Counted from the stretch's first letter, positions 1-21,875 are shown. The stretch: 64,000 nt of DNA from Candidatus Poribacteria bacterium (GCA_965220325.1 OZ244821.1:4381924-4445923); one strand, 5' to 3'. Numbers and translations are program-made. The notes: generated by a model not told the origin, from the letters alone.

Positions 1-488
1 GTTGCCATCTTGAAAGCGATTCGGAAGATATCCGGGTTTGCTTCTTCGTTTGCTTTCACAAGTTGGCTATGAAATGAATCGTTTCGCTGTTTGTTCTCAT
101 ATTCGTTGAGATAGATAGCAGTCTCCACGGCTTCACGTTGACAGAAATAGAGGCGTGGTTCATTTTCTGGATTGTTCCAATGCTCAAGGAGCCGCCGTGT
201 CGTTGGTGTTACACCGGGATAACCGCTCTGCCGCCACGCCGCCACCTGTGTCCGAACGCTGTTGATAAACGTGTTCGCCTCTCGGAGATCGCTATCGGGA
301 AGCTCAAATTGTAGTTGTGCTTCTCCTGACTGCTTTTTCGGTTTCGGAAACGGCATGAAGTATTCACTTCTGCGTCTACCGTCAGCAATCTCTTCGGTGA
401 TACCGCGGGCATTGAATTTGAAATGTCGTTTCGGTTCTTCAAACGGACTATTGATAACTGGGTTGTCTATGTTAACTTTTGCCATGTG
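1..488 (-). CDS. ResIII-type SF2 helicase / Type III restriction Res-subunit-like protein, N-terminal fragment (gene runs off window start)
   Basis: Minus-strand ATG at 486-488, only 9 nt after the stop of the PIN-like gene (497). Translation MAKVNIDNPVINSPFEEPKRHFKFNARGITEEIADGRRRSEYFMPFPKPKK...RLYFCQREAVETAIYLNEYENKQ...IAFKMAT stays open to position 1. It resembles N-termini of ResIII/Type III Res-like helicases (from memory). It is absent from the ORF track because there is no stop in the window. Confidence 0.4.
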
Positions 489-496
489 GATGCCTT

Positions 497-1048
497 TTAT
501 CTTCCTTTTGAATGCCGCCTTTTCTCGCGTCGTTCGTGTAAGTGACGGATGTTCTCCTCACAGATGAATTCAACTATCAAACCGTTCTCAACAAATAGTG
601 ATCGTAAAGGATACCATTGGCTATCTACTGATTGTAGGAGAGTCGCTTTTTGCTGATGGACATTCTCGTACACCACTGCTACGGCAATAAATTTTTGGTC
701 ATCTGAGTCGAAATCACTGAATACATCAGGGAGTTCTTCAAAACCCTTTTCACCCGTAGATGATGGTGTGATATGCACCTGCACACACTGCTCAGGATTT
801 TTATAATTGCGGATGAACCACTCCAAAAAGTGGCCACCTGCTCTATTATCTGTTGTTGAATTATTATCTTCAAGGTAGGTGTTATATTCATTGAGAATTA
901 TCCAATTATCGTCAATAACGACCTTTTCAGGCCCCTCAATAATTAAATCCAACCGCTCTTGGCACAATATTACACACTCGGGCCACGCTTGTTTGGACAT
1001 ACCCTTTGCAGCCAAAATAACATTTGTATCTACGACAACAGTGCTCAT
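497..1048 (-). CDS. PIN-like (possibly TOPRIM-like) Rossmann-fold nuclease candidate, paralog 1, 183 aa
   Basis: N-terminal MSTVVVDTNVILAA (hhhDTNhh is typical of PIN motif 1) and an acidic cluster DFDSDDQKFIAVAV. The start ATG overlaps the stop of the upstream ATPase (ATGA at 1045-1048). A diverged paralog lies at 2358-2885. Confidence 0.5.
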   Translation of the reverse strand: MSTVVVDTNVILAAKGMSKQAWPECVILCQERLDLIIEGPEKVVIDDNWIILNEYNTYLEDNNSTTDNRAGGHFLEWFIRNYKNPEQCVQVHITPSSTGEKGFEELPDVFSDFDSDDQKFIAVAVVYENVHQQKATLLQSVDSQWYPLRSLFVENGLIVEFICEENIRHLHERREKRRHSKGR

Positions 1049-2361
1049 TCACCCTCCGTTTCCTTCTGACGTTTCATCTGCTCACGTGTCATTTTAACAA
1101 GATCACCCCGGACATTACCAAAGAAGTCTGGTGGCCAATTTGTGATGTTGCCGAGCTCATCTACGCCTAATGATTTAATAGTAGAAACGCCGCTTTCGTT
1201 TTCACAAAAATAGAGTGCTGTATCACTTGCGGCAATCTTCTGTTCCGCGATGTGGAGTTGCAGACGCGTTAAGAGGTGTTCGCTGTGGCTCTCTATAAGA
1301 ATCTGGAGGTTCCGTTCGGTGATAGCTTCTATTAGCAGATCAGCAAAGTCGGCTTGCGCCTTCGGATGGAGGTGGATACCCGGCTGTTCTAAAATTAGCG
1401 TTGAACCTTCCGGGACATAGCAGCAATGCACCAACAAGGGAAACAGATCGGAGACTCCGTGCCCCATGTCTGCTAACGTGACCTCTGCACTGTTAGAAGT
1501 TGTTTGGAAGCGGACTTCGTAATTGTTATCGTCTAAGGAACCTTTGGGAACAAGTGAAAAGGAGTGAGCAAGTTCTAACTTTCGGAGCCATTTAGATATT
1601 CGCTCCTCAATTGAGACATTTTTTCCGTTGTGAGGGGTTGTTAATTGTCTGACGCGCGCGGAGAGTAACGCGTCAACGGCTTTATCGCCTTGCAGATCTA
1701 TCTCCTCCGGATGTGTCCTTTTCCAGTGATAGTGACGTTGTGGATGAACGCGAGTCGGACCGAGCGGATAGACGTTAGCAAATAGATTTTCAAACGCAGC
1801 GGAAAGCGGCGATAAAGATTGATCCGTTTCCCTTGCTCGGTGACCATAACAGTTTGTCCCGCCTATAATACCATGTGACTTCTTTCCATGGTAAAGTTTT
1901 CCATTTTGCCATCCTATCTTTTGAATAACCTCAGGGCCAACAGTGTAACAAAAACGCTCAATTGACAGCCCATGAGAGCCTCCTCGGATTGCAGTATCAA
2001 AAGTGAAACTATCAATATCCAACGGAGCCAGTTCATAATTTCCTATATGTTTGTTAATTTCTTGATAGGCTATGATATTTGACGGTTTCTTGAGTTTACA
2101 TCCAAACTCTAATTCGAGCAGTTCATTTTCTTTGTGTCCATGAATTACTTCACGGAAGCTGCCGAGATTGAGGAGTGATGTTTCGTCCCCAAAGAAGATA
2201 ACTTCTTCCCGCCCAATAGTCTGCTTTAGCAACAACAGCATTTGCAACAGGCTGCTCTTCCCAGAACTATTCGTCCCAAAGAAACCAGTCAGTGGAGCAA
2301 GTTTCACCTCACCGCTGTCTTTCCACGATTTGAAGTTTTTTACATGTATATGTGTAATCAT
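1045..2361 (-). CDS. ABC-type AAA_15/AAA_21-like ATPase with DUF3696-like C-terminus, copy 1, 438 aa
   Basis: Walker A GFFGTNSSGKSSLLQ at the N-terminus. Walker B / H-loop region near the C-terminus reads LILEQPGIHLHP...LQILIESHSEHLL, followed by the C-terminal NWPPDFFG motif. The start overlaps the stop of upstream PIN-like copy 2 (ATGA at 2358-2361). Confidence 0.7.
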   Translation of the reverse strand: MITHIHVKNFKSWKDSGEVKLAPLTGFFGTNSSGKSSLLQMLLLLKQTIGREEVIFFGDETSLLNLGSFREVIHGHKENELLELEFGCKLKKPSNIIAYQEINKHIGNYELAPLDIDSFTFDTAIRGGSHGLSIERFCYTVGPEVIQKIGWQNGKLYHGKKSHGIIGGTNCYGHRARETDQSLSPLSAAFENLFANVYPLGPTRVHPQRHYHWKRTHPEEIDLQGDKAVDALLSARVRQLTTPHNGKNVSIEERISKWLRKLELAHSFSLVPKGSLDDNNYEVRFQTTSNSAEVTLADMGHGVSDLFPLLVHCCYVPEGSTLILEQPGIHLHPKAQADFADLLIEAITERNLQILIESHSEHLLTRLQLHIAEQKIAASDTALYFCENESGVSTIKSLGVDELGNITNWPPDFFGNVRGDLVKMTREQMKRQKETEGE

Positions 2362-2885
2362 CTTTCTTTCCTTCCTTGGCGTGGACGTTGCATATCCTCC
2401 TTACAGATGAGGTTAACGCTAACTCCATGGTTTGCAAGCGCAGCCATAAATTGAAGCCATCCTCTATCTATCGCCAAGAGAATTGGCGGAGTTTGTCCAG
2501 TATCGCGTTTGTGTGCCAGAGCAACGGCAATGAATTTTCTGTCATCAGAATCAAAACTAATTAATACATTGTCATCGGGAAATTCTTCAAAATCAGTCCC
2601 ATTTCCAGCCAATGATGTAATATGTACCATTGTGCAGATCTCTGGGTTTCCAAGATTTTGTAGTAACCTTTTCACAAAGAGATCGCCAATGCCTTTTCGG
2701 GTGTTTGGACGCGTATTATCCTGGTACTCTCCCAAAATTCGCCTTTTGTTGTCAATAACCACCTTTTCATGTTGGTCAATAATTTGTTGAATTCGCTCTT
2801 GACAACGGTCTCTACAATCTTTACGTTTGTCATCTGTATCATTTGCGATCACAATAACGTTCGTATCTACAATAACAGCGTCCAT
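2358..2885 (-). CDS. PIN-like nuclease candidate, paralog 2, 175 aa
   Basis: MDAVIVDTNVIVIAND...ISFDSDDRKFIAVALA has the same motif architecture as the 497-1048 protein (about 40% identity by eye). The start ATG overlaps the TAA of the upstream ATPase by 1 nt (TAATG at 2883-2887). Confidence 0.5.
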   Translation of the reverse strand: MDAVIVDTNVIVIANDTDDKRKDCRDRCQERIQQIIDQHEKVVIDNKRRILGEYQDNTRPNTRKGIGDLFVKRLLQNLGNPEICTMVHITSLAGNGTDFEEFPDDNVLISFDSDDRKFIAVALAHKRDTGQTPPILLAIDRGWLQFMAALANHGVSVNLICKEDMQRPRQGRKER

Positions 2886-4234
2886 TAACCCTCCGCTCTC
2901 TTTTGACGTTCTCTTTGTGCTTCTGTCATAGCAAACAGATCTCCCATTTCGTCCCCAAAGAAATTTTCGGGCCAGTTCGCTATATTACCGAATTCATCCA
3001 TTTCTAACTTGTCAATTTCAGAAATACCTTCTTCATTACGGCAGAAATAGAGGGCAGTTTTATCAACGCTAATCTTTTCCTCAGCAATACGCCGCTGCAA
3101 CCGGTTTAAGAGGTGTTCGCTGTGGCTCTCCACCAAAATCTGAAGGTTGCGTTCCGTAATAACTTCTATCAGTAGGTCTGCAAGTTGGGATTGAACCTTC
3201 GGATGGAGATGCATGCCCGGTTGTTCCAAGATTAGTGTAGAACCCTCTGGAGCATAATAGCAATGCACTAACACTGGCAGAAATTGTGCTAACCCGTAAC
3301 CCATGTCAGCTAGCGTGACCTTCGCGCTATCAGGTGTCTTTTGAATAAGGACATCATAATCCCGATCTGTGCCTACACTACTCCGTTTAATAGAAAAGGC
3401 ATAACCAAGATCCATTTCTCGGAGCCACCAAGAGATTCGCTTCTCAATAGAGACATTTTTTCCTTCATAAGGCGTTGTTCGCTGATCCACGCGAGCGTTG
3501 AGTAGAGAGTCAATCATATTTTCGCCGCTTTGCCCGATGCTTTCAGGATGTGTTCCTTCCCAATGGTAGATACGTTTCGGTTGGACGCGAGTCGGACCGA
3601 GCGGATAGACGTGAGCAAATAGTCTCCTAAATTCAAATGCAAATCGGGTTATTGGATCGCGGCTTGGGTCAGGATGGTGGGATTGACCATAGATTTTTCC
3701 TGAGAAATTTCCCGTTATGACCTGCCCCTTATTTCCCGATTTAGTACGGGGACCAAAGACTATAGAAGGAGTGCTGAAATCACCGTTTACAACTTGCTCT
3801 TCATTTTCAGATTTAACGTGGTAATGACCTTTTTCAACAGAGACTCTGTTCTTTCTGCAAAAAATAGTAGCATTAAAGGTAAAACTCTCAACATTTAACG
3901 AAGCATCAATATAACCATTGAACTGATCACGGAGAGGGATAGTAAACGGCTCCTGGACCTTACATCCAAATTCCAACTCAAGCAAGGCATCTTCTTTATG
4001 CCCATGAATCACTTCACGGAAATTGCCGAGATTAACGAGAGATCCTTCATCACCGAAGAAGATAATTTCATTTAAATCTGGACGCTCTGCGGTCTGTTTA
4101 AGCAGCAGGAGCATCTGCAACAGGCTGCTCTTCCCAGAACTATTAGTCCCGAAAAAGCCTGTCAACGGTGCAAGTTTCACCTCGCCACTATCTTTCCACG
4201 ATTTGAAATTTTTCATCCGTATATGTGTAATCAT
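2885..4234 (-). CDS. ABC-type AAA_15/AAA_21-like ATPase with DUF3696-like C-terminus, copy 2, about 449 aa
   Basis: Start re-assigned to the ATG at 4232-4234 (MITHIRMKNFKSW, matching the paralog MITHIHVKNFKSW). It has a GGAGG Shine-Dalgarno 8 nt upstream; the ORF-track start at 4321 lacks an RBS. Walker A GTNSSGKSS; C-terminus LILEQPGMHLHP...ESHSEHLL...NWPENFFG. Confidence 0.7.
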   Translation of the reverse strand: MITHIRMKNFKSWKDSGEVKLAPLTGFFGTNSSGKSSLLQMLLLLKQTAERPDLNEIIFFGDEGSLVNLGNFREVIHGHKEDALLELEFGCKVQEPFTIPLRDQFNGYIDASLNVESFTFNATIFCRKNRVSVEKGHYHVKSENEEQVVNGDFSTPSIVFGPRTKSGNKGQVITGNFSGKIYGQSHHPDPSRDPITRFAFEFRRLFAHVYPLGPTRVQPKRIYHWEGTHPESIGQSGENMIDSLLNARVDQRTTPYEGKNVSIEKRISWWLREMDLGYAFSIKRSSVGTDRDYDVLIQKTPDSAKVTLADMGYGLAQFLPVLVHCYYAPEGSTLILEQPGMHLHPKVQSQLADLLIEVITERNLQILVESHSEHLLNRLQRRIAEEKISVDKTALYFCRNEEGISEIDKLEMDEFGNIANWPENFFGDEMGDLFAMTEAQRERQKRAEG

Positions 4235-4351
4235 TTTTTCTGCCTCCGTATTAACTCTATTATACGCAATTTCACGAGAAAATTCAAGCGGATCAATATA
4301 AAGTAGAACCAAGATCCACATCGAAAATTGAATGATCCTGAAATGAGATTT

Positions 4352-4381
4352 GACTTGTGTTGCAAATATATGCTATAATTT
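4352..4381 (+). promoter_or_regulatory. sigma-70-like promoter (TTGACT - 18 nt - TATAAT) for the Rpn-family gene, in the divergent intergenic region
   Basis: ttgacttgtgttgcaaatatatgctataat lies 24 nt upstream of the AAGGAAA RBS and the ATG at 4405. Confidence 0.4.
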
Positions 4382-4404: not shown

Positions 4405-5325
4405 ATGGCGATTTTTGATACCCTTACCAAAACGCAAGCACAAACACACCCCATGGACTTCGTCAATTACTGCCTAAACTTTGAGCAAGACGAGGCTACT
4501 TTCGTTGAATTGATCGTACCGGAGCAACCTACGGTTGAAATGCACCAGGCAGATATCGTCATCAAAGTAGAACGCAACGGTCAAGAGATTCTGGTCCATT
4601 TCGAGTTTCAAACCACCGACAGTTATGATCCTGAGATGTCTCTGAGGATGGCAGGTTATATCATTCGGTTGGTTGAAACGTATCGGTTGCCGGTGTATTC
4701 AAGTGTTATCTACCTTCGACCGGATGCGGGTCGAAGGGACCGTGGCGTTTATGTGCAGAACATAGCGGAACATCAGATTTTCATTGAATATAAGGTTTTT
4801 CGGCTCATTGAGATGGACGGGCAGCGGATCCTTGATGCCAAACCTACAGGATTGCTCCCTTTCACGCCGCTGATGAAACGTCCGGCGGGTGTAGATGCTG
4901 AGCAATGGCTGCGCCGGTGTATCCAAACCGCCGATAGCGTTGATGTCTCGAACAAACCAGCGTACCTCGGCACCTTGGCGGTTTTGGGAAATTTAGTCTA
5001 TGAATCGGAAGTAATTTCACGTATCATTTCGGAGGAAACCATGCAGCAACGTAATATTATTGAATACTGGACAGAGAAAGCCACAGCAGAAGCACACCAA
5101 CAAGGCCTCAAGCAAGGCCTCGAGCAAGGTATGAGAGAACGGGCCCTTGAAGACATTCTTGAAGCATTGGAACTCCGATTACAGCCCGATGCTGCGAGCA
5201 CCTTCAAGCCCATATTAGAAACGATTGAGGATTCCCAACGTCTCAAGCAGCTGTTTCGCGCCGCACTCTTAGCTGAAAGCACAGAAGACTTCGCACAGGT
5301 TTTAGCGGCAGACAGAGGTGTATAA
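4405..5325 (+). CDS. Rpn-family recombination-promoting nuclease / putative transposase (PD-(D/E)XK, Transposase_31/DUF4351-like)
   Basis: ADIVIKVE...ILVHFEFQTT gives the D...E-x-Q catalytic motif of the Rpn/YhgA family. The C-terminal QQGLKQGLEQGMRE repeat region is typical of DUF4351 tails. A good RBS (aaaaggaaataga) precedes the ATG. Confidence 0.65.
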   Translation: MAIFDTLTKTQAQTHPMDFVNYCLNFEQDEATFVELIVPEQPTVEMHQADIVIKVERNGQEILVHFEFQTTDSYDPEMSLRMAGYIIRLVETYRLPVYSSVIYLRPDAGRRDRGVYVQNIAEHQIFIEYKVFRLIEMDGQRILDAKPTGLLPFTPLMKRPAGVDAEQWLRRCIQTADSVDVSNKPAYLGTLAVLGNLVYESEVISRIISEETMQQRNIIEYWTEKATAEAHQQGLKQGLEQGMRERALEDILEALELRLQPDAASTFKPILETIEDSQRLKQLFRAALLAESTEDFAQVLAADRGV

Positions 5326-5378: not shown

Positions 5379-8063
5379 CTACAAAATCTTATACTCTTTC
5401 ATCACCTCATCGCCGTAGTGATTGATGACTTTTACTGCGATTTTGCCGGTTTCAGGTTTTGCAAACGGTAGACTCTCTGTCCGATAAAGTGCTTCCCACG
5501 CCTCCGCGTCAATTTCCGAATTCAGGGCGCGCTTCAGCTGCTTATAAGGCTCATCCTCACCCGTGAAATAGGCATGTCGCACAAAAAACGCTTCACCGTT
5601 ATAAGCAGTATCAATGAACCAGCAAGCGATGTCTTCCGGTGTGTCGGAGCGGGTTAACCCCTGCTTTGGATCGTATACATCCACGCCCAAAAGTTTCACA
5701 GAGTGTGTCCCATCTTCATGATTCACAATCTCGACATCCGGTTCTCCAAACACCATGAACAGATTGCCTTGACCTGTGTTTTTAAGTTCGCGCACCATTA
5801 ACTCAGGACTCATCTTAACCGGTAGGATGGTAAGCCGTCCCATGCGTGTGTCCTCACCGGCGGTATAGCCTTCAAACGCAAAACCGGCAATAATGAGTAA
5901 ATCAAATCGCGGGGTTCGGCGCGCTGCTTCCTTCGCAGCCTCGTTTATCCACTGGCTACCCACAGTAATGGATTGGGGAGCGATACTAATAGCGACATTG
6001 GGCATATTGTTATCTGCATCGGTATACGCACCTTCTGCATGTAACCACTCACCGGGCAGTTCCTCCAACCAATCAAAGGTAATGCGCTGCCCCTGAAGGC
6101 GGTTTTGCACACCTCCTGTTTTCAGATGTTCAAGGATATGCTGGTGATAATCTTGTGAAACATCTGGGGCAGCAGGCGTTGGCGCAGCAGTCTCTGCATC
6201 AATAGAATCAAGCACGAAATGTGGCGATAAACTTTCTACAGTGAACGGACCTGTGACGCGAACCCGTTTTTTGTCTTCATGCGGTTGATCGTAGAGTATC
6301 TCTTTTTTTGCACGCCGTGCAGTTGAGGCATCCATGGCAAGTTGTCGTTCACGTTTGAGGTTGAGCCATTGACGATGTAAATTCTGGAATTCGGAGTCCC
6401 ATTCACTATCAGTCTCTGCTGGCACTTCCCACTCTTCCCAGTTTTGCCCCATGAGACGGTTCATTTCAGCACGCAGCGGATCCAGCTTTGCTGCATATTC
6501 GATATAGATGTCGTCAACCTCTGTGTTATTTGCCATGTCTGAGAGACTGATATCCGGGGCTGTTTTGTAAATAAAACCCTCCTTGATGTCGTCTGTATTT
6601 TCAAGACGATAGTAGGGATATTTGGCAGATATGAGGCGCGTACGTGCCAGTGCAAGTGCGACGCGTGAGGTATCTACTGTTATCCATCGTCTGCCCCACT
6701 GCTCTGCAACATAAGCAGTTGTGCCGCTACCACACGTCGGATCAAGCACGAGATCTCCAGGGTCCGTTGCCATGAGTACGCACCGTTGAATTACCTTAGG
6801 GTGAGTCTCTACAACGTACTTTCTTCCAGAACGACCTCCTGCTGTATCTATCCATAGGTTAGTAATCGGGTTCCCTGGTGAATCAACTGCATATCGGATA
6901 TAACGCAAGGCACTTCTTTTTCCAGTAAGTCTTTCCTGCTTTGCAAGTCGATTTAAACCTTCATTGCTCGCACTCCACGTTCTGGAACCAGGTGGAGTAA
7001 AAGTTTTTCCTTGAAATTCATATTCATCAGCATAACCTTGAGAACTCTGTGACGATACTGAAAGGTTTATAAATCTTCTGCTTCCTGGTGGCAAAAGCCC
7101 TGGATTTTCTTGCTCATCCCTTGTCATTCCACGCCTCGTTCCGTTTTCTAACTCAACCTGGGTGTAAGATTTAAGCAGAGGATCAGCTATGCGTTCATCC
7201 CATTCCATCCAAAGTTGTCGATACTTCACCATTTCCTTGTCTTTCGCATACCATAGGATATAATCTGATACTGACGCTAAGGAGGTAGATGAAGTCATAT
7301 TCGTACGAGTCCATGTAATTGTAGAGATAAAATTATTATCTCCGAAGATTTCATCTAATAAGCATCTAACACGGTGAACGTTCTCATCGCTAATCTGAAT
7401 AAAGATACTGCCGCTATCCGTTAGCAATTCACGGGCAACAGTAAGGCGATCGCGTAAATAAGCAAGGTAAGAATGGATGCCGAGTTCCCATGTATCTCGA
7501 AATGCTTTAACCTGTTCTGGTTGTGGTGTAACATCTTCTGCACCAGTATCACCAACTTCATTTTTGCGAGTGCTGACCTGCCAATTGCTGCTGAATTTAA
7601 TCCCGTACGGCGGATCAAAATAGATTATCTGCACCGCACCTTTGAGATGTTCTTTTTCGGCAAGCGAGTTCATCGCCGTAAGTGAATCACCTAAGATAAA
7701 ACGGTTGTGCCAGTTTTGTTCGTGTTCGTAGAATTCGATTTTTTGGTTGAAATCAAGACCGTCGAAACCTTCAAAGAGCAACTCTATCTGCTCTGATTCT
7801 CGCCGCTTTTGTGCGCGAAGGTTTTCAATAATCGCTTGGGGTTGGATATGTTCTTGCGTGTAGATAGGTACGGCTGGCACTTCAAGATCGCTATCGTTCT
7901 GTTGGTCCTTGCCTTTCCAGACGAGTTGCGGGTCAAGTGCTACGTCGCGCGGGTAACGGGTGGGTGCGTTTTCTTCATCTTCAGCGAATCCGCTTAATTC
8001 TTGGGTCGGGTTGTTCGGAAGTGTGTCAGGGTGTTCGTAATGGTCAATCGGTTTTTTCGGCAT
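5379..8063 (-). CDS. Beta-class N6-adenine/N4-cytosine DNA methyltransferase (Type III Mod-like), ~894 aa, with a C-terminal domain of unknown function
   Basis: Motif IV IIYFDPPYG lies about 290 aa before motif I TCGSGTTAYVAEQWGRRWITVD, the beta-class order with an intervening target-recognition domain as in Type III Mod. Start re-assigned to the ATG at 8061-8063 (MPKKPIDHY), which has an AAGGAG RBS; the ORF-track start at 8213 has none. Confidence 0.75.
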   Translation of the reverse strand: MPKKPIDHYEHPDTLPNNPTQELSGFAEDEENAPTRYPRDVALDPQLVWKGKDQQNDSDLEVPAVPIYTQEHIQPQAIIENLRAQKRRESEQIELLFEGFDGLDFNQKIEFYEHEQNWHNRFILGDSLTAMNSLAEKEHLKGAVQIIYFDPPYGIKFSSNWQVSTRKNEVGDTGAEDVTPQPEQVKAFRDTWELGIHSYLAYLRDRLTVARELLTDSGSIFIQISDENVHRVRCLLDEIFGDNNFISTITWTRTNMTSSTSLASVSDYILWYAKDKEMVKYRQLWMEWDERIADPLLKSYTQVELENGTRRGMTRDEQENPGLLPPGSRRFINLSVSSQSSQGYADEYEFQGKTFTPPGSRTWSASNEGLNRLAKQERLTGKRSALRYIRYAVDSPGNPITNLWIDTAGGRSGRKYVVETHPKVIQRCVLMATDPGDLVLDPTCGSGTTAYVAEQWGRRWITVDTSRVALALARTRLISAKYPYYRLENTDDIKEGFIYKTAPDISLSDMANNTEVDDIYIEYAAKLDPLRAEMNRLMGQNWEEWEVPAETDSEWDSEFQNLHRQWLNLKRERQLAMDASTARRAKKEILYDQPHEDKKRVRVTGPFTVESLSPHFVLDSIDAETAAPTPAAPDVSQDYHQHILEHLKTGGVQNRLQGQRITFDWLEELPGEWLHAEGAYTDADNNMPNVAISIAPQSITVGSQWINEAAKEAARRTPRFDLLIIAGFAFEGYTAGEDTRMGRLTILPVKMSPELMVRELKNTGQGNLFMVFGEPDVEIVNHEDGTHSVKLLGVDVYDPKQGLTRSDTPEDIACWFIDTAYNGEAFFVRHAYFTGEDEPYKQLKRALNSEIDAEAWEALYRTESLPFAKPETGKIAVKVINHYGDEVMKEYKIL

Positions 8064-8142
8064 AGAATCTCCTTTGCTGTTGGCTAAAGATGATGCCTCA
8101 TTTTTTTCGTGAATGCTTGCGAATCTAAATACGTTGGTAGAT

Positions 8143-8520
8143 TCATGGGCGGACGATCTGTTGTTGTTTGAGTGCTTCGATTTCTTGTGTGAGTGTCTCA
8201 ATCTGTTTTTCAAGAGTCTGATCTTTTCTGCTACGCCTGCTTGCTAAGATGCCCCACACTGTTGCACCGATGGCAAGAATCGCTAAAGGGATACCAATGC
8301 AAGCGATAATGATGTTATTGAGTCTGTCGAAATTCTTTTCAAGGCTCGCAAATTTGTCGTCAACTCCCTGAAATTTGTCGTCAATCTTTTCATTTAGATT
8401 CTTAATTTCGGTTTTTATCACCGCGATTTCGGTCTCTACATCCATCTGTGGTGTTTGACAGAGTGCTGGAAACCCAGCGATAGCACCTAAAAGTAGTGAA
8501 AGTGCAAGAACATATTTCAT
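8143..8520 (-). CDS. Hypothetical secreted/membrane-anchored coiled-coil protein
   Basis: Start at the ATG at 8518-8520 (MKYVLALSLLLGAIAGFPALC signal peptide) with an AAGGAG RBS. Central coiled coil; C-terminal TM helix IIIACIGIPLAILAIGATVWGILA. Confidence 0.4.
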   Translation of the reverse strand: MKYVLALSLLLGAIAGFPALCQTPQMDVETEIAVIKTEIKNLNEKIDDKFQGVDDKFASLEKNFDRLNNIIIACIGIPLAILAIGATVWGILASRRSRKDQTLEKQIETLTQEIEALKQQQIVRP

Positions 8521-8576
8521 CAAATGTCTCCTTTTAGAAAGAGTCAATCACATTTGCTTTTGTGTGGCAAAAAATG

Positions 8577-8858
8577 CTAGCGTGTAATGCACACCCTACG
8601 GGGGTTGAAGAAACGGGAAAATTGCTGCGTCTCCCACACAATAGATCCGATGTCGCTGCCTTTGTTACGATTACAATATGAACACGCGTAAGCGAGATTA
8701 CTTTCTTGGGTAGAGCCTCCATGTTTCTCGCTAAGAATGTGATCTATCTGACAACCAAAGTAAGTATCCTCTTCACGAATCAGACAGTATTCACAAAGGC
8801 TTTTGGCGCGGGCCCTAACCAACTCTCGTAAGGCAACGGGGATATAAGTCTTACTCAT
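8577..8858 (-). CDS. HNH endonuclease (small, 93 aa)
   Basis: CEYC...CQIDHILSEKHGG...NLAYACSYCNRNK carries the HNH and zinc-ligand motifs. Confidence 0.7.
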   Translation of the reverse strand: MSKTYIPVALRELVRARAKSLCEYCLIREEDTYFGCQIDHILSEKHGGSTQESNLAYACSYCNRNKGSDIGSIVWETQQFSRFFNPRRVCITR

Positions 8859-9093
8859 TTTTTAAATAGTATCGAGCGCGAGATTTAGCGAGCCGCATCA
8901 GATGTTCAAGTTGCAAACAGTGATTGAGTTCTGCTGTTTCTTCAGAGGTTAGTCCTGTCGTCTTTTCGCGGTGGATGAGATCTGAAAGACGCTCTTTTGC
9001 CGCCTCGGATGGACAAAAGTCTATTAAATTTTGCGGGGTTGTCCCTGCTGCAATAAAATCAACGATTTCTTGATATGCAGGTGATATGTACAT
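8851..9093 (-). CDS. Small conserved hypothetical protein, likely partner of the HNH endonuclease (overlaps its start by 8 nt)
   Basis: 80-aa helical protein (MYISPAYQEIVDFIAAG...LEHLMRLAKSRA). The 8-nt overlap with the HNH gene suggests a two-gene module. Confidence 0.4.
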   Translation of the reverse strand: MYISPAYQEIVDFIAAGTTPQNLIDFCPSEAAKERLSDLIHREKTTGLTSEETAELNHCLQLEHLMRLAKSRARYYLKNE

Positions 9094-9110: not shown

Positions 9111-9524
9111 TTACAGCTGATCTTCAATCCATTCATCGTCGTGGGCAGGATTATAGATGAGCCCCTTTTTAATATCGAGACAGAGATCCAGGTATTCCAG
9201 GACCATGTGTCCGACAAGGACAGGCAGCCCGGCCGGTAGATCCGCCACTTCCATCGTCCCCTCCCGTTCTAAGACGGTATATCGGACATCTGAATAAACT
9301 GTCCGCGTAACGATACCGTTTGTGGTCTGTGCCCTTCTACTTCTAACGGGAGTCAAGCCGAGTTGTTCGATAAGCGGCTTCGGTAAGGATAATCCAGTCG
9401 CACCGGTATCAACAATCGCGTCTTCAACGGTCACTTGCCGGATATCCTCAGGTTTAATAACACCAGCTTCAGCTAAAAACTGATCTTTTCGATTTGCGAG
9501 TTCTATTTTTGTTGTGTGTTTCAT
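9111..9524 (-). CDS. Retropepsin-like (clan AA) aspartic protease
   Basis: AIVDTGATGLSLP is the classic D-T/S-G-A active-site motif; about 137 aa. Confidence 0.6.
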   Translation of the reverse strand: MKHTTKIELANRKDQFLAEAGVIKPEDIRQVTVEDAIVDTGATGLSLPKPLIEQLGLTPVRSRRAQTTNGIVTRTVYSDVRYTVLEREGTMEVADLPAGLPVLVGHMVLEYLDLCLDIKKGLIYNPAHDDEWIEDQL

Positions 9525-9592
9525 TTTTTTTCCCTCAGTTTACGATAAAATTCTTTGTGACATAGCATATGCTGCTGGCTAAAGATGATACC

Positions 9593-9775
9593 TCATTCTT
9601 TCAAGCGTTCAAGTTCCGCTTGGAGTCGCGCGACTTCTGCTTCTGCGCTCTCCGCGCGTGCTTTCGCGATCTCCATCGGCGTTTGGAGCCACTGCTCCCT
9701 AACCGGATCGTAAACCTCTAAACGCCTTTCACGGATATGGAAATCTAAACCGAAATATACACAATAGTGTAGCAA
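9593..9775 (-). pseudogene. Possible remnant of an Uma2-family (DUF820) endonuclease C-terminus
   Basis: The 60-aa ORF ends LEVYDPVREQWLQTPMEIAKARAESAEAEVARLQAELERLKE, which resembles the conserved C-terminal tail of cyanobacterial Uma2 proteins. No upstream domain is present. Confidence 0.2.
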
Positions 9776-9835
9776 AAAAAAACGCCGCTGTCAAATTTAA
9801 TTTTTAAGGAACCTTCCTTATTTTTACTTTACTAA

Positions 9836-10060
9836 AGTTTAGACAATTTTAAGAGGTCCAAGGTTTTTGATCGGATACGCTCTTTTGTACCATAGGAGAC
9901 CGTTGGTTTCCTGTGGTCTCTTTGTACCATAGGCTGTATGAAGATTAAATAAATATTTCGGTAATCGTTGAAGATCGCGAGCGCAGCTCGCTCCTACCAA
10001 GAGGCTATTGATACATTACCGAATTAAATTCTGAAACTTCATTTAGCCTGTGGCAGTGAT
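9836..10060. repeat. Dispersed intergenic repeat, copy A (shares blocks with 58005-58090), with an internal duplication
   Basis: Shared blocks actaaagttt(a/g)gacaattttaa, ctcttttgta(c/g)cataggctgt and tagcctgtggca. ctcttttgtaccatagg occurs twice in copy A, and gatcggatacgctc recurs at 9871 and 10059. Confidence 0.5.
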
Positions 10061-10300
10061 CGGATACGCTCTAACGCTGCCAAAATATTTACACACTCAA
10101 AATAAAAAATAAATTTGCATCTCTACATTATATATGTTATCATATACATACTAATTGAATTATATTAATCTCAAGAAAAAAAGATAAAAACAACCCTTCA
10201 CCCACACAAAGGAGCACAAAACGTAGACTCGGTTAAAACGAAACTATGACTTCTGGTAGGAGCGAGTGTTTTTGCTGGGGTGTTTCTTGTCGCTCGCGAT
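9971..10300. repeat. Imperfect terminal inverted repeats bounding a ~330-bp AT-rich non-coding element (MITE-like)
   Basis: The left arm gatcgcgagcgcagctcgctcctaccaaga (9971-10000) is the reverse complement, with a few mismatches, of the right arm tctggtaggagcgagtg...cgctcgcgatc (10251-10300). Confidence 0.4.
10115..10143 (+). promoter_or_regulatory. Orphan sigma-70-like promoter (TTGCAT - 17 nt - TATCAT) inside the non-coding island
   Basis: ttgcatctctacattatatatgttatcat; no annotated ORF lies downstream before the terminator at 10358-10387. Confidence 0.3.
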
Positions 10301-10357
10301 CTGTACTTTTGCCTAACGACTCAGAGTCACCCCAAACGCAAATCGAAAATCGCAAAT

Positions 10358-10387
10358 CGAAAATGTTACACTTTTCGCCTTTTTTTT
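10358..10387 (+). terminator. Rho-independent terminator-like hairpin (weak AU-rich stem) plus T8 tract
   Basis: cgaaaa tgttacac ttttcg cc tttttttt; together with the promoter at 10115 it would delimit a ~230-nt transcript. Confidence 0.3.
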
Positions 10388-10463
10388 CAAATACGAAACC
10401 ATAACACAATTACCTCTGAACCCTTACAATGACTAAGTTTATCGCAATATTCTATCCATACCC

Positions 10464-10487
10464 AATGTTACACTGGTGTAACATTTT
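10464..10487. promoter_or_regulatory. Perfect palindrome AATGTTACAC-TG-GTGTAACATT (candidate operator; the half-site also occurs in the terminator loop at 10362)
   Basis: The 10-bp arms are exact reverse complements. The motif AATGTTACAC occurs three times within 130 bp. Confidence 0.35.
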
Positions 10488-10883
10488 AAGCACAGATGCA
10501 CTGCCTCTTAAAGTCCCTGATAACCTGACACCTGCGATCACAACCGGAACCTGAAACGCCCGAACTTGAACCAATAGACCCTAATCCATCGCAGAAAAAA
10601 ATATAACGCAAATTTTTGCGTACAAAAAAAATTAAAGTGCCTTTAGGACAAAAATCACAGCAGCCGAACGCATCCATGTTGAAATTGTTATACTTGAACA
10701 GGAGGCTAAATTCTGATAGAATATCTCCTAAGCAGGAAAGAAGAGGCATTTTTACATTCCTTTCAAAACACTTCTACGTTTTTATGAAAGGATGCCTCTT
10801 TTCTGCTTGTTGTCATCTTAATTCGTAAAATTGTCCAAACTATAGTACCAATTGCGAAAACACAACTGAAAAGGAGACACACA

Positions 10884-11147
10884 TTGGAAAAAATACGCGG
10901 ATTGATTTCTCTATTGGAATCTGGCGTTGAAGACTATGACGCGCAGGTAAAGGTTCTCCAGTCAGAACGCCTGAAATATATCCGGCTCTCTATAACGGAC
11001 GGGTTCGGCACGGAAGAAGGCGACTCTAAACAGTCGTGGCTACTTCACCTCAAGCAACTCGAAGATTCACTCGCCCTGAGACGGAAAACCATACGACAGG
11101 CAGTTGTAGATACCGCAGAAGATATTCAGAAAGAGGAAAACGCATAA
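10884..11147 (+). CDS. Small hypothetical helical protein (87 aa, TTG start) translationally coupled to the downstream CRTAC1-like gene
   Basis: AAGGAG (10871-10876) lies 7 nt before the TTG at 10884. The stop TAA overlaps the ATG of the next gene (TAATG at 11145-11149). Confidence 0.45.
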   Translation: MEKIRGLISLLESGVEDYDAQVKVLQSERLKYIRLSITDGFGTEEGDSKQSWLLHLKQLEDSLALRRKTIRQAVVDTAEDIQKEENA

Positions 11148-14100
11148 TGTTGAAATTTCTGTCTCCAAGTATAGAAAAGTGTTTGAAGTATATCCTGCTG
11201 TTGGTATCGTGTTTTGCTGCCCCAATAGGATGGACGCAAGAGACAGATAACAGCAGAATTATTGAAGAAGCGATCCGGCACCAGAATTTAGGGTTGGCAT
11301 ACCTGGAGGAGTCACAGCCCTCAAAAGCAGTCGAGGAATTTACGACGCTTATTGAACTGCTCCCCAACGAAGCGATCGGTTATGGAAACCTTGCTGTCGC
11401 GCACTTACGTCTACAACAGGCAGACACCGCTGAAGAATGGGTGAAACGCGGCATCGCTGTCGCGCCGATGGATAGCCGGTTACATTTCATCTTGTCCGAA
11501 GTCTACCAACTGCAAGACGGAAAAACGAATTTAGCCGTAGAAGCGATGAAGGAAGCTGTTCGGTTGGACGCCGATGAATTAGAATTTCGCTACAAACTGG
11601 TGCGTCACTACCTTGGACGCCGAAACGACCCGGAAGCACAGCGGGAGGCTGTCCGGCATCTTCAAGAACTGCATGCCCGATCACCGGTGAATATCGTTGT
11701 GCTGATGAAGTTGACACTCGGATTGTTAGCGCAGGAGGACCTCGAAGCTGCTGGAGACCTCTGTCAAGACCTAATGCTCCTTTTAGGCGATACCGACCCA
11801 GACAAACTCAAATATCTTACACAAGGAATAGAAGCAATAGCACAAGGTGACCTAAAACTCGCTACACGAAATATAAAAATTTTCGAGAACGTAAATCGGG
11901 CAAGTCCCCGTTATCAGCAGGGTATCGGCGAATTGGTGACCGACATCCTTGGGCATCCGATAGAGACATTCAGTCCAGGGTTTCGCGCGCGAATCATCGC
12001 TAAAGAGAGCCTACCGATTGAAGTGGAATTTGTGGATGTTACTGAACAACTTGGACTTGCCGATGTGAATCCGCCTTTAGATTTCAAGACACCCGTTGCT
12101 GTCATTCTTATGGACCACGATAATGACGGGGATCTGGATCTGCATATAGTCGCGGCGAACGGTTTTGAGTTGTATCGAAATATAGGAAACCAGTTTGAGC
12201 CTATTAACACATACGTAGCGGACGAAGACACCCATATCATTGTTGCGGATTTAAATAAGGATGGCATACAGGATTATTTATTCCAAAGTGTTAAGGGAAT
12301 CGGGCATATATGGAGGGATACGGAAGGGAATGAAGGGGCATCTGACCTCATCATATATAAAAATCCCAGAACTGAGATAGGGATCCTTCATCCTGTCGAT
12401 TATGATCACGATGGCGATCTGGACCTCTTTACAACCGGTACCACGATGTATCGGAATAATAGCGATGATAAAAATAAAGGGGACGAAAGGTTTACCGATG
12501 TTAGTGAACAGGCTTTTGTAAAAACAGCCGCGCCACAATCCGTACCTGCCGAAGCATTCTCCGCTGATTTTGATGACGATGGCGATATAGATATTTTTAC
12601 GATACACCGCGAAACCGGATGTACCCTTTACGATAACCTCCGTCAAGGGAAACTTCGCGCGATTTCCGATGAGACAGGAATTCACCAGGATATGCATTAC
12701 ACGGCAGCTGCTATCGGTGATTATGACAACGATGGCGACATTGATATCTTCTTAGCAACAGCAGCTCGTATGCACCTCTACCTTAATAGAGGCGACGGAA
12801 GTTTTGTAGACGACCCACGCTTAGAGGCGGATGTACAAGGTATATCCCCTACACTCTTAAAAAACATAGATTACGATAACGACGGATTTGTTGACCTCTG
12901 GGTGAGTGGTGAAGATGGGATGTTTCTGTTCCGAAACGACGGAACCGGGCAGTTCATGGAACCGTATCCGCTAATAGAAACTGGCACACCAACGGAGGGA
13001 GCGATCCTCCACAAGGCAACCGCTGGAGCCGTAGGCGATTATGACAATGACGGCGACCTTGACCTCTTTTTTATCAACCTCAAAGGAGAACTTCGAGCAT
13101 TACAAAACAATGGTGGCAATCGAAATAAATGGATACAGGTGCGATTGGAAGGTATCACTACTGGAAACAATAAAGTCAATAGGGACGGCATCGGCTCGAA
13201 ACTGGAGGTGAAAGTCGGTGATCTGTATCAACTACAATATGTATCCGAACAGGTCTCCCATTTCGGGTTAGGCGCGTTTGACAAGGCGGATATTGTTCGT
13301 GTTGTCTGGACGAACGGCGTGCCGCAGAACGTCATCGAACCGCAAGCGAAACAACGGATTCTGGAGAAACAGATACTCAAAGGTTCCTGTCCGTTCTTAT
13401 ACGTCTACGATGGAGAGAAATACGAATTCGTTACTGACTTGCTCTGGCGCGCACCTTTGGGGCTTGTCACTTCAATGGGGTTCGTTGCTCCTGATGAAAC
13501 GCGGGACTTCGTGAAGATTTCCGGGACACAGATACAACCGAAAGATGGTAAGTATTCCATTCAGATTACCGAGGAGTTATGGGAAACCGCCTATTTTGAC
13601 GAGGTGAAACTGATCGCGGTGGACCACCCAGTAGGTACTGACATCTTCGTAAATGAGCAGTATGTTCCGCCGCCGTTTGCCGAATTCAAGGTTTACGGGG
13701 TCAAGGAGAAGCTGCACCCGAAATCCGCACGCAACCATCGGGGTGAAGATGTATCCGATGCTTTAAGAACGTCTGATTACCACTACGCCGTTGAACACGC
13801 ACCCGGTCCCTATCAAGGGGTCGTTGAACCGCATGCAATAGTTCTTGATCTCGGTGATGTACCGAATGATACGCCTGTGACGCTGTTCCTCACCGGCTGG
13901 ATTTTCCCGACGGATACGAGTATCAATGTTGCCCTGTTCCAAAACAGCGAAATTAATCCGAGTTTTCCGTCGGTTGCTGTAAAAGATAAAACAGGAGCGT
14001 GGGAAACCGTGATTGATATGATTGGGCTGCCGGCGGGGAAAAACAAGACGATTACCGTCGATCTAACGGGCAAATTTCTGTCGGATGACCGACACGTCCG

Positions 14101-14671
14101 AATTGAAACCGATATGCAGATTTACTGGGACGCAGCGTTTTTCACTGTCGGCAGGCAAGACGTACCGATAGAGATGACGACGTTGAACCCAGATAGCGCG
14201 GATCTGCACTACCGCGGCTTTTCGGAGATGTATCGTCCAAACGCACACGCGCCGCACCTGTTCAACTACCAAAAAGTGACGACCGATGCCCAATGGCGCG
14301 ATCTGGCAGGTTATTATACGCGCTACGGAGATGTCAATCCGCTGTTACAAGAGGTTGATGATATGTATGTAATCCTTAATGCTGGCGATGAAATCACGGT
14401 TGAGTTTGATGCCTCACGCTTGCCGGTACTAAAACCTGGATGGGCTCGCGATTTTATTCTCTATAGCGACGGATGGGACAAAGATGGCGACATCAATACG
14501 CTCACCTCGCAGACAGTTGAACCGCTGCCGTTTCACGGGATGTCTGCCTATCCGTATCCAGACACTGAGCATTATCCAGATAGCGAAGCGCATCGCCGGT
14601 ATCGGCTTGAATATAATACCCGACGCGTGGAGCACCGTTTACCGCTATTATCGACAGAAGTAAAACCATGA
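11147..14671 (+). CDS. Secreted TPR + FG-GAP/VCBS repeat + ASPIC/UnbV domain protein (CRTAC1 family), ~1174 aa
   Basis: Start at 11147 (MLKFLSPSIEKCLKYILLLVSCFAAPIGWTQE signal peptide), in frame with the ORF-track 11036 start. TPR helices precede six FG-GAP/VCBS calcium loops (DHDNDGDLDL, DYDHDGDLDL, DFDDDGDIDI, DYDNDGDIDI, DYDNDGFVDL, DYDNDGDLDL). The UnbV/ASPIC core follows (GSKLEVKVGDLYQ...HFGLGAFDKADIVRVVWTNG). Confidence 0.8.
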   Translation: MLKFLSPSIEKCLKYILLLVSCFAAPIGWTQETDNSRIIEEAIRHQNLGLAYLEESQPSKAVEEFTTLIELLPNEAIGYGNLAVAHLRLQQADTAEEWVKRGIAVAPMDSRLHFILSEVYQLQDGKTNLAVEAMKEAVRLDADELEFRYKLVRHYLGRRNDPEAQREAVRHLQELHARSPVNIVVLMKLTLGLLAQEDLEAAGDLCQDLMLLLGDTDPDKLKYLTQGIEAIAQGDLKLATRNIKIFENVNRASPRYQQGIGELVTDILGHPIETFSPGFRARIIAKESLPIEVEFVDVTEQLGLADVNPPLDFKTPVAVILMDHDNDGDLDLHIVAANGFELYRNIGNQFEPINTYVADEDTHIIVADLNKDGIQDYLFQSVKGIGHIWRDTEGNEGASDLIIYKNPRTEIGILHPVDYDHDGDLDLFTTGTTMYRNNSDDKNKGDERFTDVSEQAFVKTAAPQSVPAEAFSADFDDDGDIDIFTIHRETGCTLYDNLRQGKLRAISDETGIHQDMHYTAAAIGDYDNDGDIDIFLATAARMHLYLNRGDGSFVDDPRLEADVQGISPTLLKNIDYDNDGFVDLWVSGEDGMFLFRNDGTGQFMEPYPLIETGTPTEGAILHKATAGAVGDYDNDGDLDLFFINLKGELRALQNNGGNRNKWIQVRLEGITTGNNKVNRDGIGSKLEVKVGDLYQLQYVSEQVSHFGLGAFDKADIVRVVWTNGVPQNVIEPQAKQRILEKQILKGSCPFLYVYDGEKYEFVTDLLWRAPLGLVTSMGFVAPDETRDFVKISGTQIQPKDGKYSIQITEELWETAYFDEVKLIAVDHPVGTDIFVNEQYVPPPFAEFKVYGVKEKLHPKSARNHRGEDVSDALRTSDYHYAVEHAPGPYQGVVEPHAIVLDLGDVPNDTPVTLFLTGWIFPTDTSINVALFQNSEINPSFPSVAVKDKTGAWETVIDMIGLPAGKNKTITVDLTGKFLSDDRHVRIETDMQIYWDAAFFTVGRQDVPIEMTTLNPDSADLHYRGFSEMYRPNAHAPHLFNYQKVTTDAQWRDLAGYYTRYGDVNPLLQEVDDMYVILNAGDEITVEFDASRLPVLKPGWARDFILYSDGWDKDGDINTLTSQTVEPLPFHGMSAYPYPDTEHYPDSEAHRRYRLEYNTRRVEHRLPLLSTEVKP

Positions 14672-16710: not shown

Positions 16711-16714
16711 GGAT

Positions 16715-17935
16715 TTATTTCCATTTATCAGTAGTGTCAGGACTCTGACTCTTGTGAAATGGGGTGACTTCATCTCTAACGCGTTTCAAAGGAACATACA
16801 GACAGAGCGTCGCGATGACCAAGATACCTGCCAGCACTGCGTAAGGATAAGCCTCGTTTGCGTAAAGCCAGCCGCCGAGCAGCGGGCCCAAAATGCGTCC
16901 TAAACTTAGAAAGGCATCCATAATACCGATAGCGGCACCTTGACCAATCTCCGTCTGCTTGGAAATCCACGATGTATTCGTCGGACGGATCAACTGATTA
17001 CCGATACCGGCAATGGTGAGGTACACTGTGAGTGTCGCAAAAGAGTAGGCTTTGAGCAGTAACGCCATACCGATAGCGTTGAGCAGCAAACCGGTGAGAA
17101 CAATGCGCCGTTCCCCGAACTTATTGATTAATCTACCGAGCAGCCCGCCTTGTAATGGCACGACAATCGCTCCCATAACCATGAACATCCACCCCATCTC
17201 TTTCTCTCCGTAGTTCCACTTATCTTCGATGAACAGTGGAAAGGTCATCTCCAAACCTGCAAAACTGAAGGTTGTGAAAAAAGCGACAAGAAAGAGAGGC
17301 GTAAGCGGCGATTTTAAAGTCGTCTGACGAAAAATTTCGCGTGGTGAAACCCATTCATGTCGGTCTTCGAGTTCCGCGCTTTTGAGACCTTTCTGGAGCG
17401 ATTCTGGTAATAAAATAAATGCGAAGAGAAAGGTAAGTAGCGACAACCCGCCTGCGACAAAGAACGGCATATCGTGGCTGCCCATGACACCACCGATCGC
17501 TGGTCCGAGGATGAAACCGAGTCCCATCGCTGCCCCCATTAATCCCATACCTCTGCCGCGTTCTTCCGATGTCGTTATATCGGCAACATAAGCCATGACA
17601 CTCGGTAAAACTGCAGCGGAAGCGATACCTGCAGCACTGCGTGCGGTAAAAAGCCACACATAATCCGTTGCGAGTCCGAAACCGATTAAAGCAGCAGCAT
17701 TACCGAGCAATCCGAGTAGAATCGCAGGTTTCCTGCCGTGTTTGTCTGATAACCTACCCCAGATCGGTGCAAACAGCAGTTGCATCCCGGAATAGATAGA
17801 CATCAATATCGCGATTTCAGTGGTGGTTGCCCCAGTTTCTTTGGCGTAATAGGCGAGGTTCGGAATGATGATGCCAAACCCAAGCATCACGAAAAATAGG
17901 GTTAAGAACAGCAGGAGAAGTCTTGATTTTTCCAT
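16715..17935 (-). CDS. MFS transporter (drug/H+ antiporter-like, 12 TM)
   Basis: The hydrophobic profile and GRLSDKHGRKP (MFS motif A-like loop) support the call. Confidence 0.8.
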   Translation of the reverse strand: MEKSRLLLLFLTLFFVMLGFGIIIPNLAYYAKETGATTTEIAILMSIYSGMQLLFAPIWGRLSDKHGRKPAILLGLLGNAAALIGFGLATDYVWLFTARSAAGIASAAVLPSVMAYVADITTSEERGRGMGLMGAAMGLGFILGPAIGGVMGSHDMPFFVAGGLSLLTFLFAFILLPESLQKGLKSAELEDRHEWVSPREIFRQTTLKSPLTPLFLVAFFTTFSFAGLEMTFPLFIEDKWNYGEKEMGWMFMVMGAIVVPLQGGLLGRLINKFGERRIVLTGLLLNAIGMALLLKAYSFATLTVYLTIAGIGNQLIRPTNTSWISKQTEIGQGAAIGIMDAFLSLGRILGPLLGGWLYANEAYPYAVLAGILVIATLCLYVPLKRVRDEVTPFHKSQSPDTTDKWK

Positions 17936-18282
17936 CTAAAATAGACGCGGAAACCCGCGATGATGAGTCCATACCTTTTCCGCTCCGAGTGGATTGTCCG
18001 TTATTGGTGAGACCTCGGAGCGATGCTAAAAATATAATATCGTTTATTATATCAGATTTGAAGAAAGTGTATCAACTAAAAACGGAATTCACGTCGGTAC
18101 TTTTCGTTGATAGGATTTGTAACTTTATTGTTTTGGCAACGAAATTGTGACATGAAAAGAGTGATTGGAAAGATGTTAATTGGAAAATTTATTATGGAAA
18201 TTTTCGTGGATTTTTGGTATTATAAAGATGGTTTTATAATTCTTAATACATTTAATGATTGAACTTATATATCGGAGGAAAA

Positions 18283-21813: not shown

Positions 21814-21875
21814 GACTCGGTACGGACGTTTCGTAAACATACTTACCACATTGTACAAAAGGAGTTTCACCTATT

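Follow-up and report, generated by a model that had tools for sequence, protein, structure and literature searches.

Probable tandem copies of the HEC-03 anti-phage system nested in a type III-like restriction operon of a Candidatus Poribacteria bacterium

At one edge of a 64,000-nucleotide stretch of DNA from a Candidatus Poribacteria bacterium (GCA_965220325.1, OZ244821.1:4381924-4445923; hereafter the window, with positions counted from its first letter), five genes are packed almost without gaps, that is, an ABC-type ATPase, a small PIN-like protein, a second pair of the same kind and the beginning of a helicase-like open reading frame (ORF) that runs off the window. Do these genes form an uncharacterized defence system, in which a duplicated ATPase–nuclease cassette is coupled to a helicase, as a first model-based reading of the sequence proposed (the original prediction), or are they a known system in another setting? 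On the basis of profile matches, homology to tested proteins and a survey of related loci, we consider it very likely that the five genes include two diverged paralogous copies of the named anti-phage system HEC-03, which reside as guests inside an operon encoding a DNA methyltransferase (Mod) and a restriction endonuclease (Res).

The gene packing is as first described. All five genes lie on the minus strand, with ATPase2 (2885-4234, 449 amino acids; the first gene of the array) and PIN2 (2358-2885, 175 amino acids) forming the Res-distal cassette, ATPase1 (1045-2361, 438 amino acids) and PIN1 (497-1048, 183 amino acids) forming the Res-proximal cassette, and an N-terminal fragment of Res (3-485, 161 amino acids) following them up to the window edge that truncates it. 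ATPase2 and PIN2 overlap by one nucleotide (TAATG), the PIN2 stop and ATPase1 start by four (ATGA) and the ATPase1 stop and PIN1 start again by four (ATGA), and a GGAGG ribosome-binding site, read from the sequence, stands at 4243-4247 (minus strand), 8 nucleotides 5′ of the ATPase2 ATG (4234). The last ORF is also real, but its start, given as 488 in the original prediction, is the ATG at 485, and the gap between the PIN1 stop and this ATG is 11 rather than 9 nucleotides. Both ATPases carry AAA_15, AAA_21 and a C-terminal DUF3696 in Pfam, which agrees with their description as ABC-type ATPases, and the sequence motifs that had been listed (GTNSSGKSS, LILEQPG(I/M)HLHP, ESHSEHLL and NWP..FFG in the ATPases; VDTNVI and FDSDD in the small proteins) were all recovered. 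The cassette is indeed duplicated and diverged, the two ATPases being 56% and the two VapC-like PINs 35% identical to each other, and the PINs fall into separate clades (p14 for PIN2 and p8 for PIN1).

HEC-03 (Hma-embedded candidate 3) consists of an ABC ATPase and a VapC-like PIN protein; it lowered the plaquing of several phages in Escherichia coli MG1655 without restriction systems, its defence required both genes and its induction was toxic (Payne, Hughes, Fineran and Jackson 2024, bioRxiv 10.1101/2024.01.29.577857). In PADLOC, ATPase2 aligned with the HEC-03B model (PDLC04148) over model positions 1-452 of 458 (E value (E) 1.5e-109) and ATPase1 over nearly the full model length (E 2.6e-100), whereas the small proteins matched HEC-03A alone (PIN2, E 3e-23; PIN1, E 2.4e-25). 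Next after HEC-03B came PDC-M55A and the Menshen NsnB model PDLC03878, the latter matched in full (E 1.9e-65 for ATPase2 and 2.6e-64 for ATPase1), and the AriA, GajA, AbiLi and Old models were far weaker (for example, AriA against ATPase2, E 2e-25). The AriA models matched conserved ATPase stretches only, and PADLOC detected no AriB-like protein among the scanned locus proteins. Direct comparison with the tested HEC-03 proteins of Pseudomonas cichorii ATCC 10857 (WP_025259138.1 and WP_025259137.1, taken from the supplement of Payne et al.) gave 36% identity over 394 amino acids for ATPase2 (E 3e-74), 30% for PIN1 (E 1e-20) and 28% for PIN2 (E 2e-15). Each cassette thus shows an ATPase that matches the HEC-03 model, an adjacent PIN protein that does the same and the two-gene order ATPase then PIN. 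Because of these strong matches and of the homology to tested HEC-03, the locus does match a named PADLOC system, and the view that no named system is present has to be given up; a probable defence function, and the kinship with the ATPase–nuclease modules of PARIS, Septu and OLD type that the same reading proposed, are upheld. The component names are inverted between sources: in Payne et al., the ATPase is HEC-03A and the PIN protein HEC-03B, and PADLOC-DB v2.0.0 has the opposite, HEC-03A (PDLC04147) being a 159-position small-protein model and HEC-03B (PDLC04148) a 458-position ATPase model.

Are the small proteins nucleases of the PIN type? Pfam gave a weak PIN_3 match for PIN2 (E 0.006), and PIN family alignments used as profiles against PDB sequences yielded no meaningful match. 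The structure of PIN1 predicted from an alignment of 140 diverse homologues has a predicted local distance difference test score (pLDDT) of 92.3 and a predicted template modelling score (pTM) of 0.89; an earlier model from 20 close relatives was unusable (pLDDT 45) and was replaced by the one from the 140-sequence alignment with distant homologues. Five acidic residues (D7, D46, E54, D117 and D142 in PIN1 numbering) are invariant throughout the alignment of 140 homologues and in 95 of 95 homologues encoded by the loci surveyed below, and in the PIN1 model the conserved acidic residues occupy strand ends and helix starts, that is, the canonical D-E-D-D positions. The model and these residues bear out the assignment of the small proteins as PIN-like. 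As for the TOPRIM fold that had been left open for them, a PIN fold with D-E-D-D residues was found instead. Given that PIN1 and PIN2 both keep all of the conserved acidic residues, both proteins of the window, each of which is a PIN domain alone (175-183 amino acids), are probably catalytically active. A cluster representative 100% identical to PIN1 exists. Standalone p14-type PINs (P0107-P0120, loci L022-L028) look chimeric, with a PIN2-like N-terminal half and a PIN1-like C-terminal half; conversely, the C-terminal half of the window-type PIN2 is unusually diverged, a divergence shared by its orthologue in the related locus L001.

What, then, is the helicase-like ORF? In NCBIfam, the 161-amino-acid fragment aligns with positions 1-160 of 970 of the profile NF046055 (E 5e-48), which represents restriction endonucleases of the BPTD_3080 family. 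It shares 98% identity with the N-terminus of its orthologue in L001 (GCA_022820105.1; PIN1 90% identical), where the gene is complete and encodes a 998-amino-acid Res with Pfam ResIII and an NF046055 score of 1090 bits (cut-off 800); against PADLOC REase_III, this orthologue matches weakly (28 bits). The partner of this Res lies 5′ of the cassettes: Mod (5379-8213, minus strand) is a type III-like N6/N4 DNA methyltransferase that matches PADLOC MTase_III (PDLC03632) over the full length with 847 bits and Pfam N6_N4_Mtase with E 3e-35. The locus order is therefore Mod, cassette 2, cassette 1 and Res, with the cassettes arranged head to tail between mod and res. The Mod ORF as listed starts at a TTG (8213; 944 amino acids), and the PADLOC model aligns from residue 88 onwards; with orthologues of 893-907 amino acids, translation probably begins at the ATG at position 8063 (894 amino acids), which would also remove the overlap with an ORF at 8143-8547. 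Hma, the host system after which HEC-03 is named, is unsupported as host here: among the best 25 of Mod's 54 PADLOC matches, all are of restriction–modification type (MTase_III, MTase_II and one orphan methyltransferase) with no Hma model among them, and the Res orthologue matched REase_III only. We infer that the restriction pair is the host locus and a first line of defence rather than a component of the cassettes. Literature searches on BPTD_3080 and on defence arrays in Poribacteria yielded nothing specific.

The question of whether the five genes act as one unit was addressed with 69 other loci (67 from contigs of one genome per species and 2 from an exact-protein index), classified by script; the sample was drawn with two peptide patterns, and the counts given here are thus not unbiased frequencies. 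Close relatives are almost all Candidatus Poribacteria. Within the same Mod–Res family, the number of cassettes varies from one (L020, L043, L044 and L045) through two (the window, L001, L002, L004, L005, L007, L008, L030, L036-L038, L041, L048 and L058) to three (L006, L013, L019 and L021), and the PIN clades mostly follow the order p11, p14, p8 and then Res, of which the window has p14 and p8 (exceptions, L019, L021 and L048). In L011 (1332-13571), the order is Mod–cassette–Mod–cassette–Res, so that duplication there extended to Mod, of which a second full-length gene is present. The two genes of a cassette are tightly joined, with an ATPase-to-PIN overlap of 1 or 4 nucleotides in 87 of 95 cassettes from the 69 other loci. 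The distance from the last PIN to Res is 11-53 nucleotides in 16 of 24 embedded loci and 178-1538 nucleotides in the remaining 8 (loci with the longer distances include L008, L003, L006, L007, L043, L044 and L045). Because of these longer gaps, coupling to Res is common yet not hard-wired, contrary to what had been proposed from the window, and about half of the Poribacteria cassettes are situated away from Mod and Res altogether. The gap in L008 (10652-11095) holds a 147-amino-acid ORF that could be a further embedded gene.

These observations bear on the idea, put forward in the original prediction, that the five genes constitute a single novel machine in which two ATPase–nuclease pairs cooperate with a helicase. 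Such a machine would account for the tight packing, the overlaps and the 11-nucleotide gap to the last gene, and these genes follow one another in identical order in L001, L002, L005, L007 and L008. However, the helicase-like ORF most probably encodes Res, with its Mod partner encoded 5′ of the cassettes, the number of cassettes changes from one to three within one Mod–Res family, cassettes also occur alone, and each cassette matches a named, validated two-gene system; we therefore regard a five-gene machine as extremely improbable, and Res most probably stands outside the defence system.

A second way of making the embedding essential is a guard comparable to PrrC, in which intact Mod–Res would silence the ATPase–PIN complexes and a phage anti-restriction protein that inactivates Mod–Res would fire them. 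The window and 24 fetched loci, that is, 25 of about 52 sampled Poribacteria loci, are embedded in one Mod–Res family in constant orientation, the last PIN is within 11-53 nucleotides of res in two-thirds of the 24, Res lineages correspond to the clade of the PIN next to them, and related ABC ATPase systems do respond to anti-restriction proteins (PrrC to Stp and PARIS to Ocr, as discussed in bioRxiv 10.1101/2024.01.29.577857). Yet HEC-03 alone protected the restriction-free E. coli MG1655 (bioRxiv 10.1101/2024.01.29.577857), other DNA or genes separate PIN and res in 8 of 24 embedded loci, and cassettes without Mod or Res within 10 kb were found in about 27 Poribacteria loci and in 17 of 17 loci from other phyla, including single cassettes of both p8 and p14. 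A guard that requires the embedding is, in our judgement, unlikely. Since cassettes of both clades occur without Mod or Res nearby, the cassettes are autonomous units that settled in the Mod–Res operon repeatedly or anciently.

A promoter may lie directly 5′ of the array. A consensus scan finds a promoter-like element (TTGAAT, 17 nucleotides, TATAAT; 10 of 12 matches) at 4259-4287 on the minus strand. The window, L001, L005, L007 and L008 agree fully in both hexamers as well as in GGAGG and ATG; they differ at three spacer positions and diverge farther upstream. This element would drive the array independently of mod, and transcription from it probably also feeds into res. A longer, 478-amino-acid reading of ATPase2 from 4321 was considered and is unlikely, because the promoter-like element would fall inside it, the promoter–GGAGG–ATG block is conserved and the homologues begin with MITHI.

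If the cassettes are HEC-03, which part of them is likely to meet the phage? Family-wide, in Poribacteria and in other phyla, the ATPases keep an intact Walker A, a G-[YF]-G signature and the H-loop ESHSEH; they carry hhhhE-Q in place of D-E in Walker B and an arginine at the Q-loop position. Menshen NsnB deviates analogously (EN for DE, R for Q, and GxG; Li et al. 2025, PMC12065111). From the E-Q dyad, one would expect nucleotides to be bound and only slowly hydrolyzed. Among 77 Poribacteria cassettes, the median identity is 76% for amino acids 1-90, 22% for 91-200, 53% for 201-270, 48% for 271-295 and 72% for 296-449. The central variable region noted earlier therefore exists and spans about amino acids 91-295; the size of about 250 amino acids attributed to it does not stand, and its unalignable core (V1) is limited to amino acids 91-200. 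In the window, V1 corresponds to 3635-3964 (minus strand) in ATPase2, after the N-terminal Walker A segment and before the arginine that replaces the Q-loop glutamine, and to 1792-2100 (minus strand; about amino acids 88-190) in ATPase1, where identity to ATPase2 and to L001 drops. Between the two ATPases of the window, amino acid identity is 0-30% in V1, whereas the N- and C-terminal segments reach about 87% and 66%, respectively; among the 120 nearest database homologues of ATPase2, the medians are 84-85% in the N and C segments and 25% in V1, and one only exceeds 80% in V1.

The same locality appears in DNA. Between the window and L001, identity is 0.89-0.97 over PIN2, the 3′ parts of both ATPases, PIN1 and Res, and falls, in the ATPase centres alone, to 0.42-0.67 (0.56-0.67 in V1 of ATPase1 and 0.42 in V1 of ATPase2). 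Recombinational replacement would account more readily than point mutation for near-random identity in V1 between flanks of 90-97% identity. Recent gene conversion was considered as the source of the near-identical ATPase N-termini of the window and rejected, as third codon positions in these conserved N-termini are just 50-70% identical; it follows from the same figure that the duplication of the cassette is old and that the conservation of the N-termini is selective. The other end of the ATPase behaves differently: in 77 pairs, segment 296-449 alone co-varies with the identity of the partner PIN (Spearman 0.59, against about 0 for the other segments). This fits the interface predicted for Menshen with AlphaFold 3, in which a pair of DUF3696 domains encloses the PIN-like domain (PMC12065111).

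Taking these patterns together with HEC-03, we suggest the following mode of action. Each ATPase would oligomerize and keep its cognate PIN inactive through the C-terminal DUF3696 region, and the hypervariable insert (amino acids ~91-200) would recognize a phage-derived trigger. The complex may be switched by nucleotide binding rather than by fast hydrolysis, as the family-wide E-Q Walker B suggests, and this switch would activate or free the PIN RNase, which would then cut RNA and abort the infection. As the two cassettes have unrelated inserts and each has its own PIN (35% identical), they may serve as independent sensors that widen the range of phages countered.

A further alternative dispenses with phage sensing: PIN and ATPase would be the toxin and antitoxin, respectively, of an addiction module that mainly stabilizes the restriction locus. 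The VapC-like effector, the toxicity of HEC-03 on induction (bioRxiv 10.1101/2024.01.29.577857), the tight, toxin–antitoxin-like gene overlap and the Pfam text on AAA_21 (putative AbiEii toxin, type IV toxin–antitoxin system) would suit this idea. Phage defence by HEC-03 has been measured, however, with both genes needed (bioRxiv 10.1101/2024.01.29.577857), the ATPase is unrelated to VapB antitoxins, and a hypervariable insert within loci that are otherwise 90-97% identical suggests that the target is external and changing, as would not be expected under pure addiction. We consider addiction as the main role quite improbable and retain phage defence by two HEC-03 copies.

Several points weigh against this preferred interpretation. 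The tested homologue is just 28-36% identical to the proteins of the window, and phage defence here is deduced from it; the proposed trigger, RNA target, oligomeric state and hold-and-release control come from PARIS, Septu and predictions for Menshen; and the assignment of V1 to Insert 1 of ABC ATPases was made from motif order alone. In addition, the ATPase–PIN co-variation statistic ignores phylogenetic non-independence (that is, shared ancestry). Finally, this same Mod–Res houses about half of the Poribacteria cassettes in the sample, with short gaps to res, and a functional link to restriction may exist.

The comparative pattern also invites a broader and more tentative suggestion. In Poribacteria, the Mod–Res operon could act as a platform on which one to three HEC-03 cassettes are arrayed in order (p11, p14, p8 and then Res). 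Their inserts would be swapped wholesale by recombination while the C-termini stay matched to their PINs, yielding a combinatorial immune locus of multiple specificities. We regard this as possible rather than probable. If true, natural insert variants in loci that are 90-97% identical would show directly where specificity is determined in ABC ATPase defence sensors. Exchange of inserts would then resemble the shuffling of target-recognition domains in type I hsdS, but in a sensor of abortive infection.

Surrounding genes add little to the system. Between mod and the array, in the opposite orientation, lies an Rpn-like gene (4405-5325, plus strand, 306 amino acids); its product matches TIGR01784 weakly, short of the cut-off for the family (E 0.005), and has no Pfam match, so that the earlier call of an Rpn nuclease is a weak one. 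The gene is missing at the orthologous position in L001, L007 and L008, and 97% identical in L005 (5648-6553). It is an inserted passenger outside the system; no terminal repeats were found around the copy in the window. A strong divergent promoter-like site is located at 4350-4379, and weaker Rpn-like ORFs stand directly 5′ of Mod in L004, L038 and L041. Just upstream of Mod, on the minus strand, are a gene for a 93-amino-acid HNH endonuclease (8577-8858; Pfam HNH, E 3e-12) and a preceding, overlapping 80-amino-acid ORF with a weak DUF7667 match (8851-9093), the pair making up a small unit of two genes. Mod and the HNH gene thus do lie nearby, as the original prediction of a defence island had it, but the island does not extend further: positions 9111-22700 encode an aspartyl-protease-like ORF, a 1211-amino-acid TPR/FG-GAP protein, a 680-amino-acid WD40 protein, a major facilitator superfamily transporter and an aldo/keto reductase, with DNA polymerase III alpha (DnaE) at 18259-21813, and beyond the HNH unit the neighbourhood of housekeeping genes is not a defence island. 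In L001, a broader defence island is seen, with CBASS-like genes (SMODS and a Cap17-like/TIR protein) and QueC at 1-3124, a few kilobases 5′ of its Mod.

The main value of the analysis is a correct annotation, that is, HEC-03 twice within a type III-like restriction operon. Ordered arrays of one to three cassettes, a BPTD_3080 Mod–Res host and localized hypervariability of the insert are not described in Payne et al. or Li et al.; these novelties are organizational variants and not a new kind of system. The comparative pattern nevertheless indicates the effector-binding part and the probable phage-sensing part of this ABC ATPase family and supplies natural chimeras. With this locus, type III-like restriction operons of uncultured sponge symbionts join the hosts in which defence systems are embedded.

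How do the cassettes compare with known systems? They share with HEC-03 the same two proteins, the gene order, the gene overlap and the nesting within another defence system. They differ from it in being tandem paralogues (up to three in relatives) rather than a single cassette, in having a type III-like Mod–Res of the BPTD_3080 family rather than Hma as host, in carrying D (VDTN) instead of the E (VETN) of the tested PIN as first acidic residue, and in coming from a sponge-symbiont lineage. Beyond HEC-03, the closest relative of these cassettes is Menshen (NsnA–NsnB–NsnC), which is reportedly to be credited to Millman 2022. Like NsnB, the ATPases here possess a DUF3696 tail, a degenerate Walker B, a Q-loop arginine and GxG, and they too have a PIN-fold partner. 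Unlike Menshen, the locus has no NsnA (ParB/DUF262 sensor), with no gene of that kind between Mod and Res and no DUF262 match in the seven proteins scanned; and whereas NsnC joins an inactive PIN to a separate toxin domain, the PINs of the window keep the catalytic acidic residues and have no fused BECR or other nuclease domain. The polymorphic part also differs, being the ATPase insert rather than NsnA or NsnC.

More distant are PARIS (AriA/AriB), Septu (PtuA/PtuB), Gabija and the OLD family, which likewise combine an ABC ATPase with a nuclease and for which control of a bound nuclease by an ATPase scaffold is similarly proposed; the effector here is a PIN rather than a TOPRIM or HNH protein (the AriB TOPRIM (DUF4435) effector that defines PARIS is absent), and the ATPases have a DUF3696 tail and other inserts. 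In its genomic setting, the locus is reminiscent of PrrC in the type I EcoprrI operon, given that in both cases an RNase module linked to an ABC-type ATPase is nested among restriction–modification genes. PrrC, however, is an anticodon nuclease of one polypeptide that depends on the host restriction enzyme, whereas HEC-03 consists of two genes and works without a restriction system.

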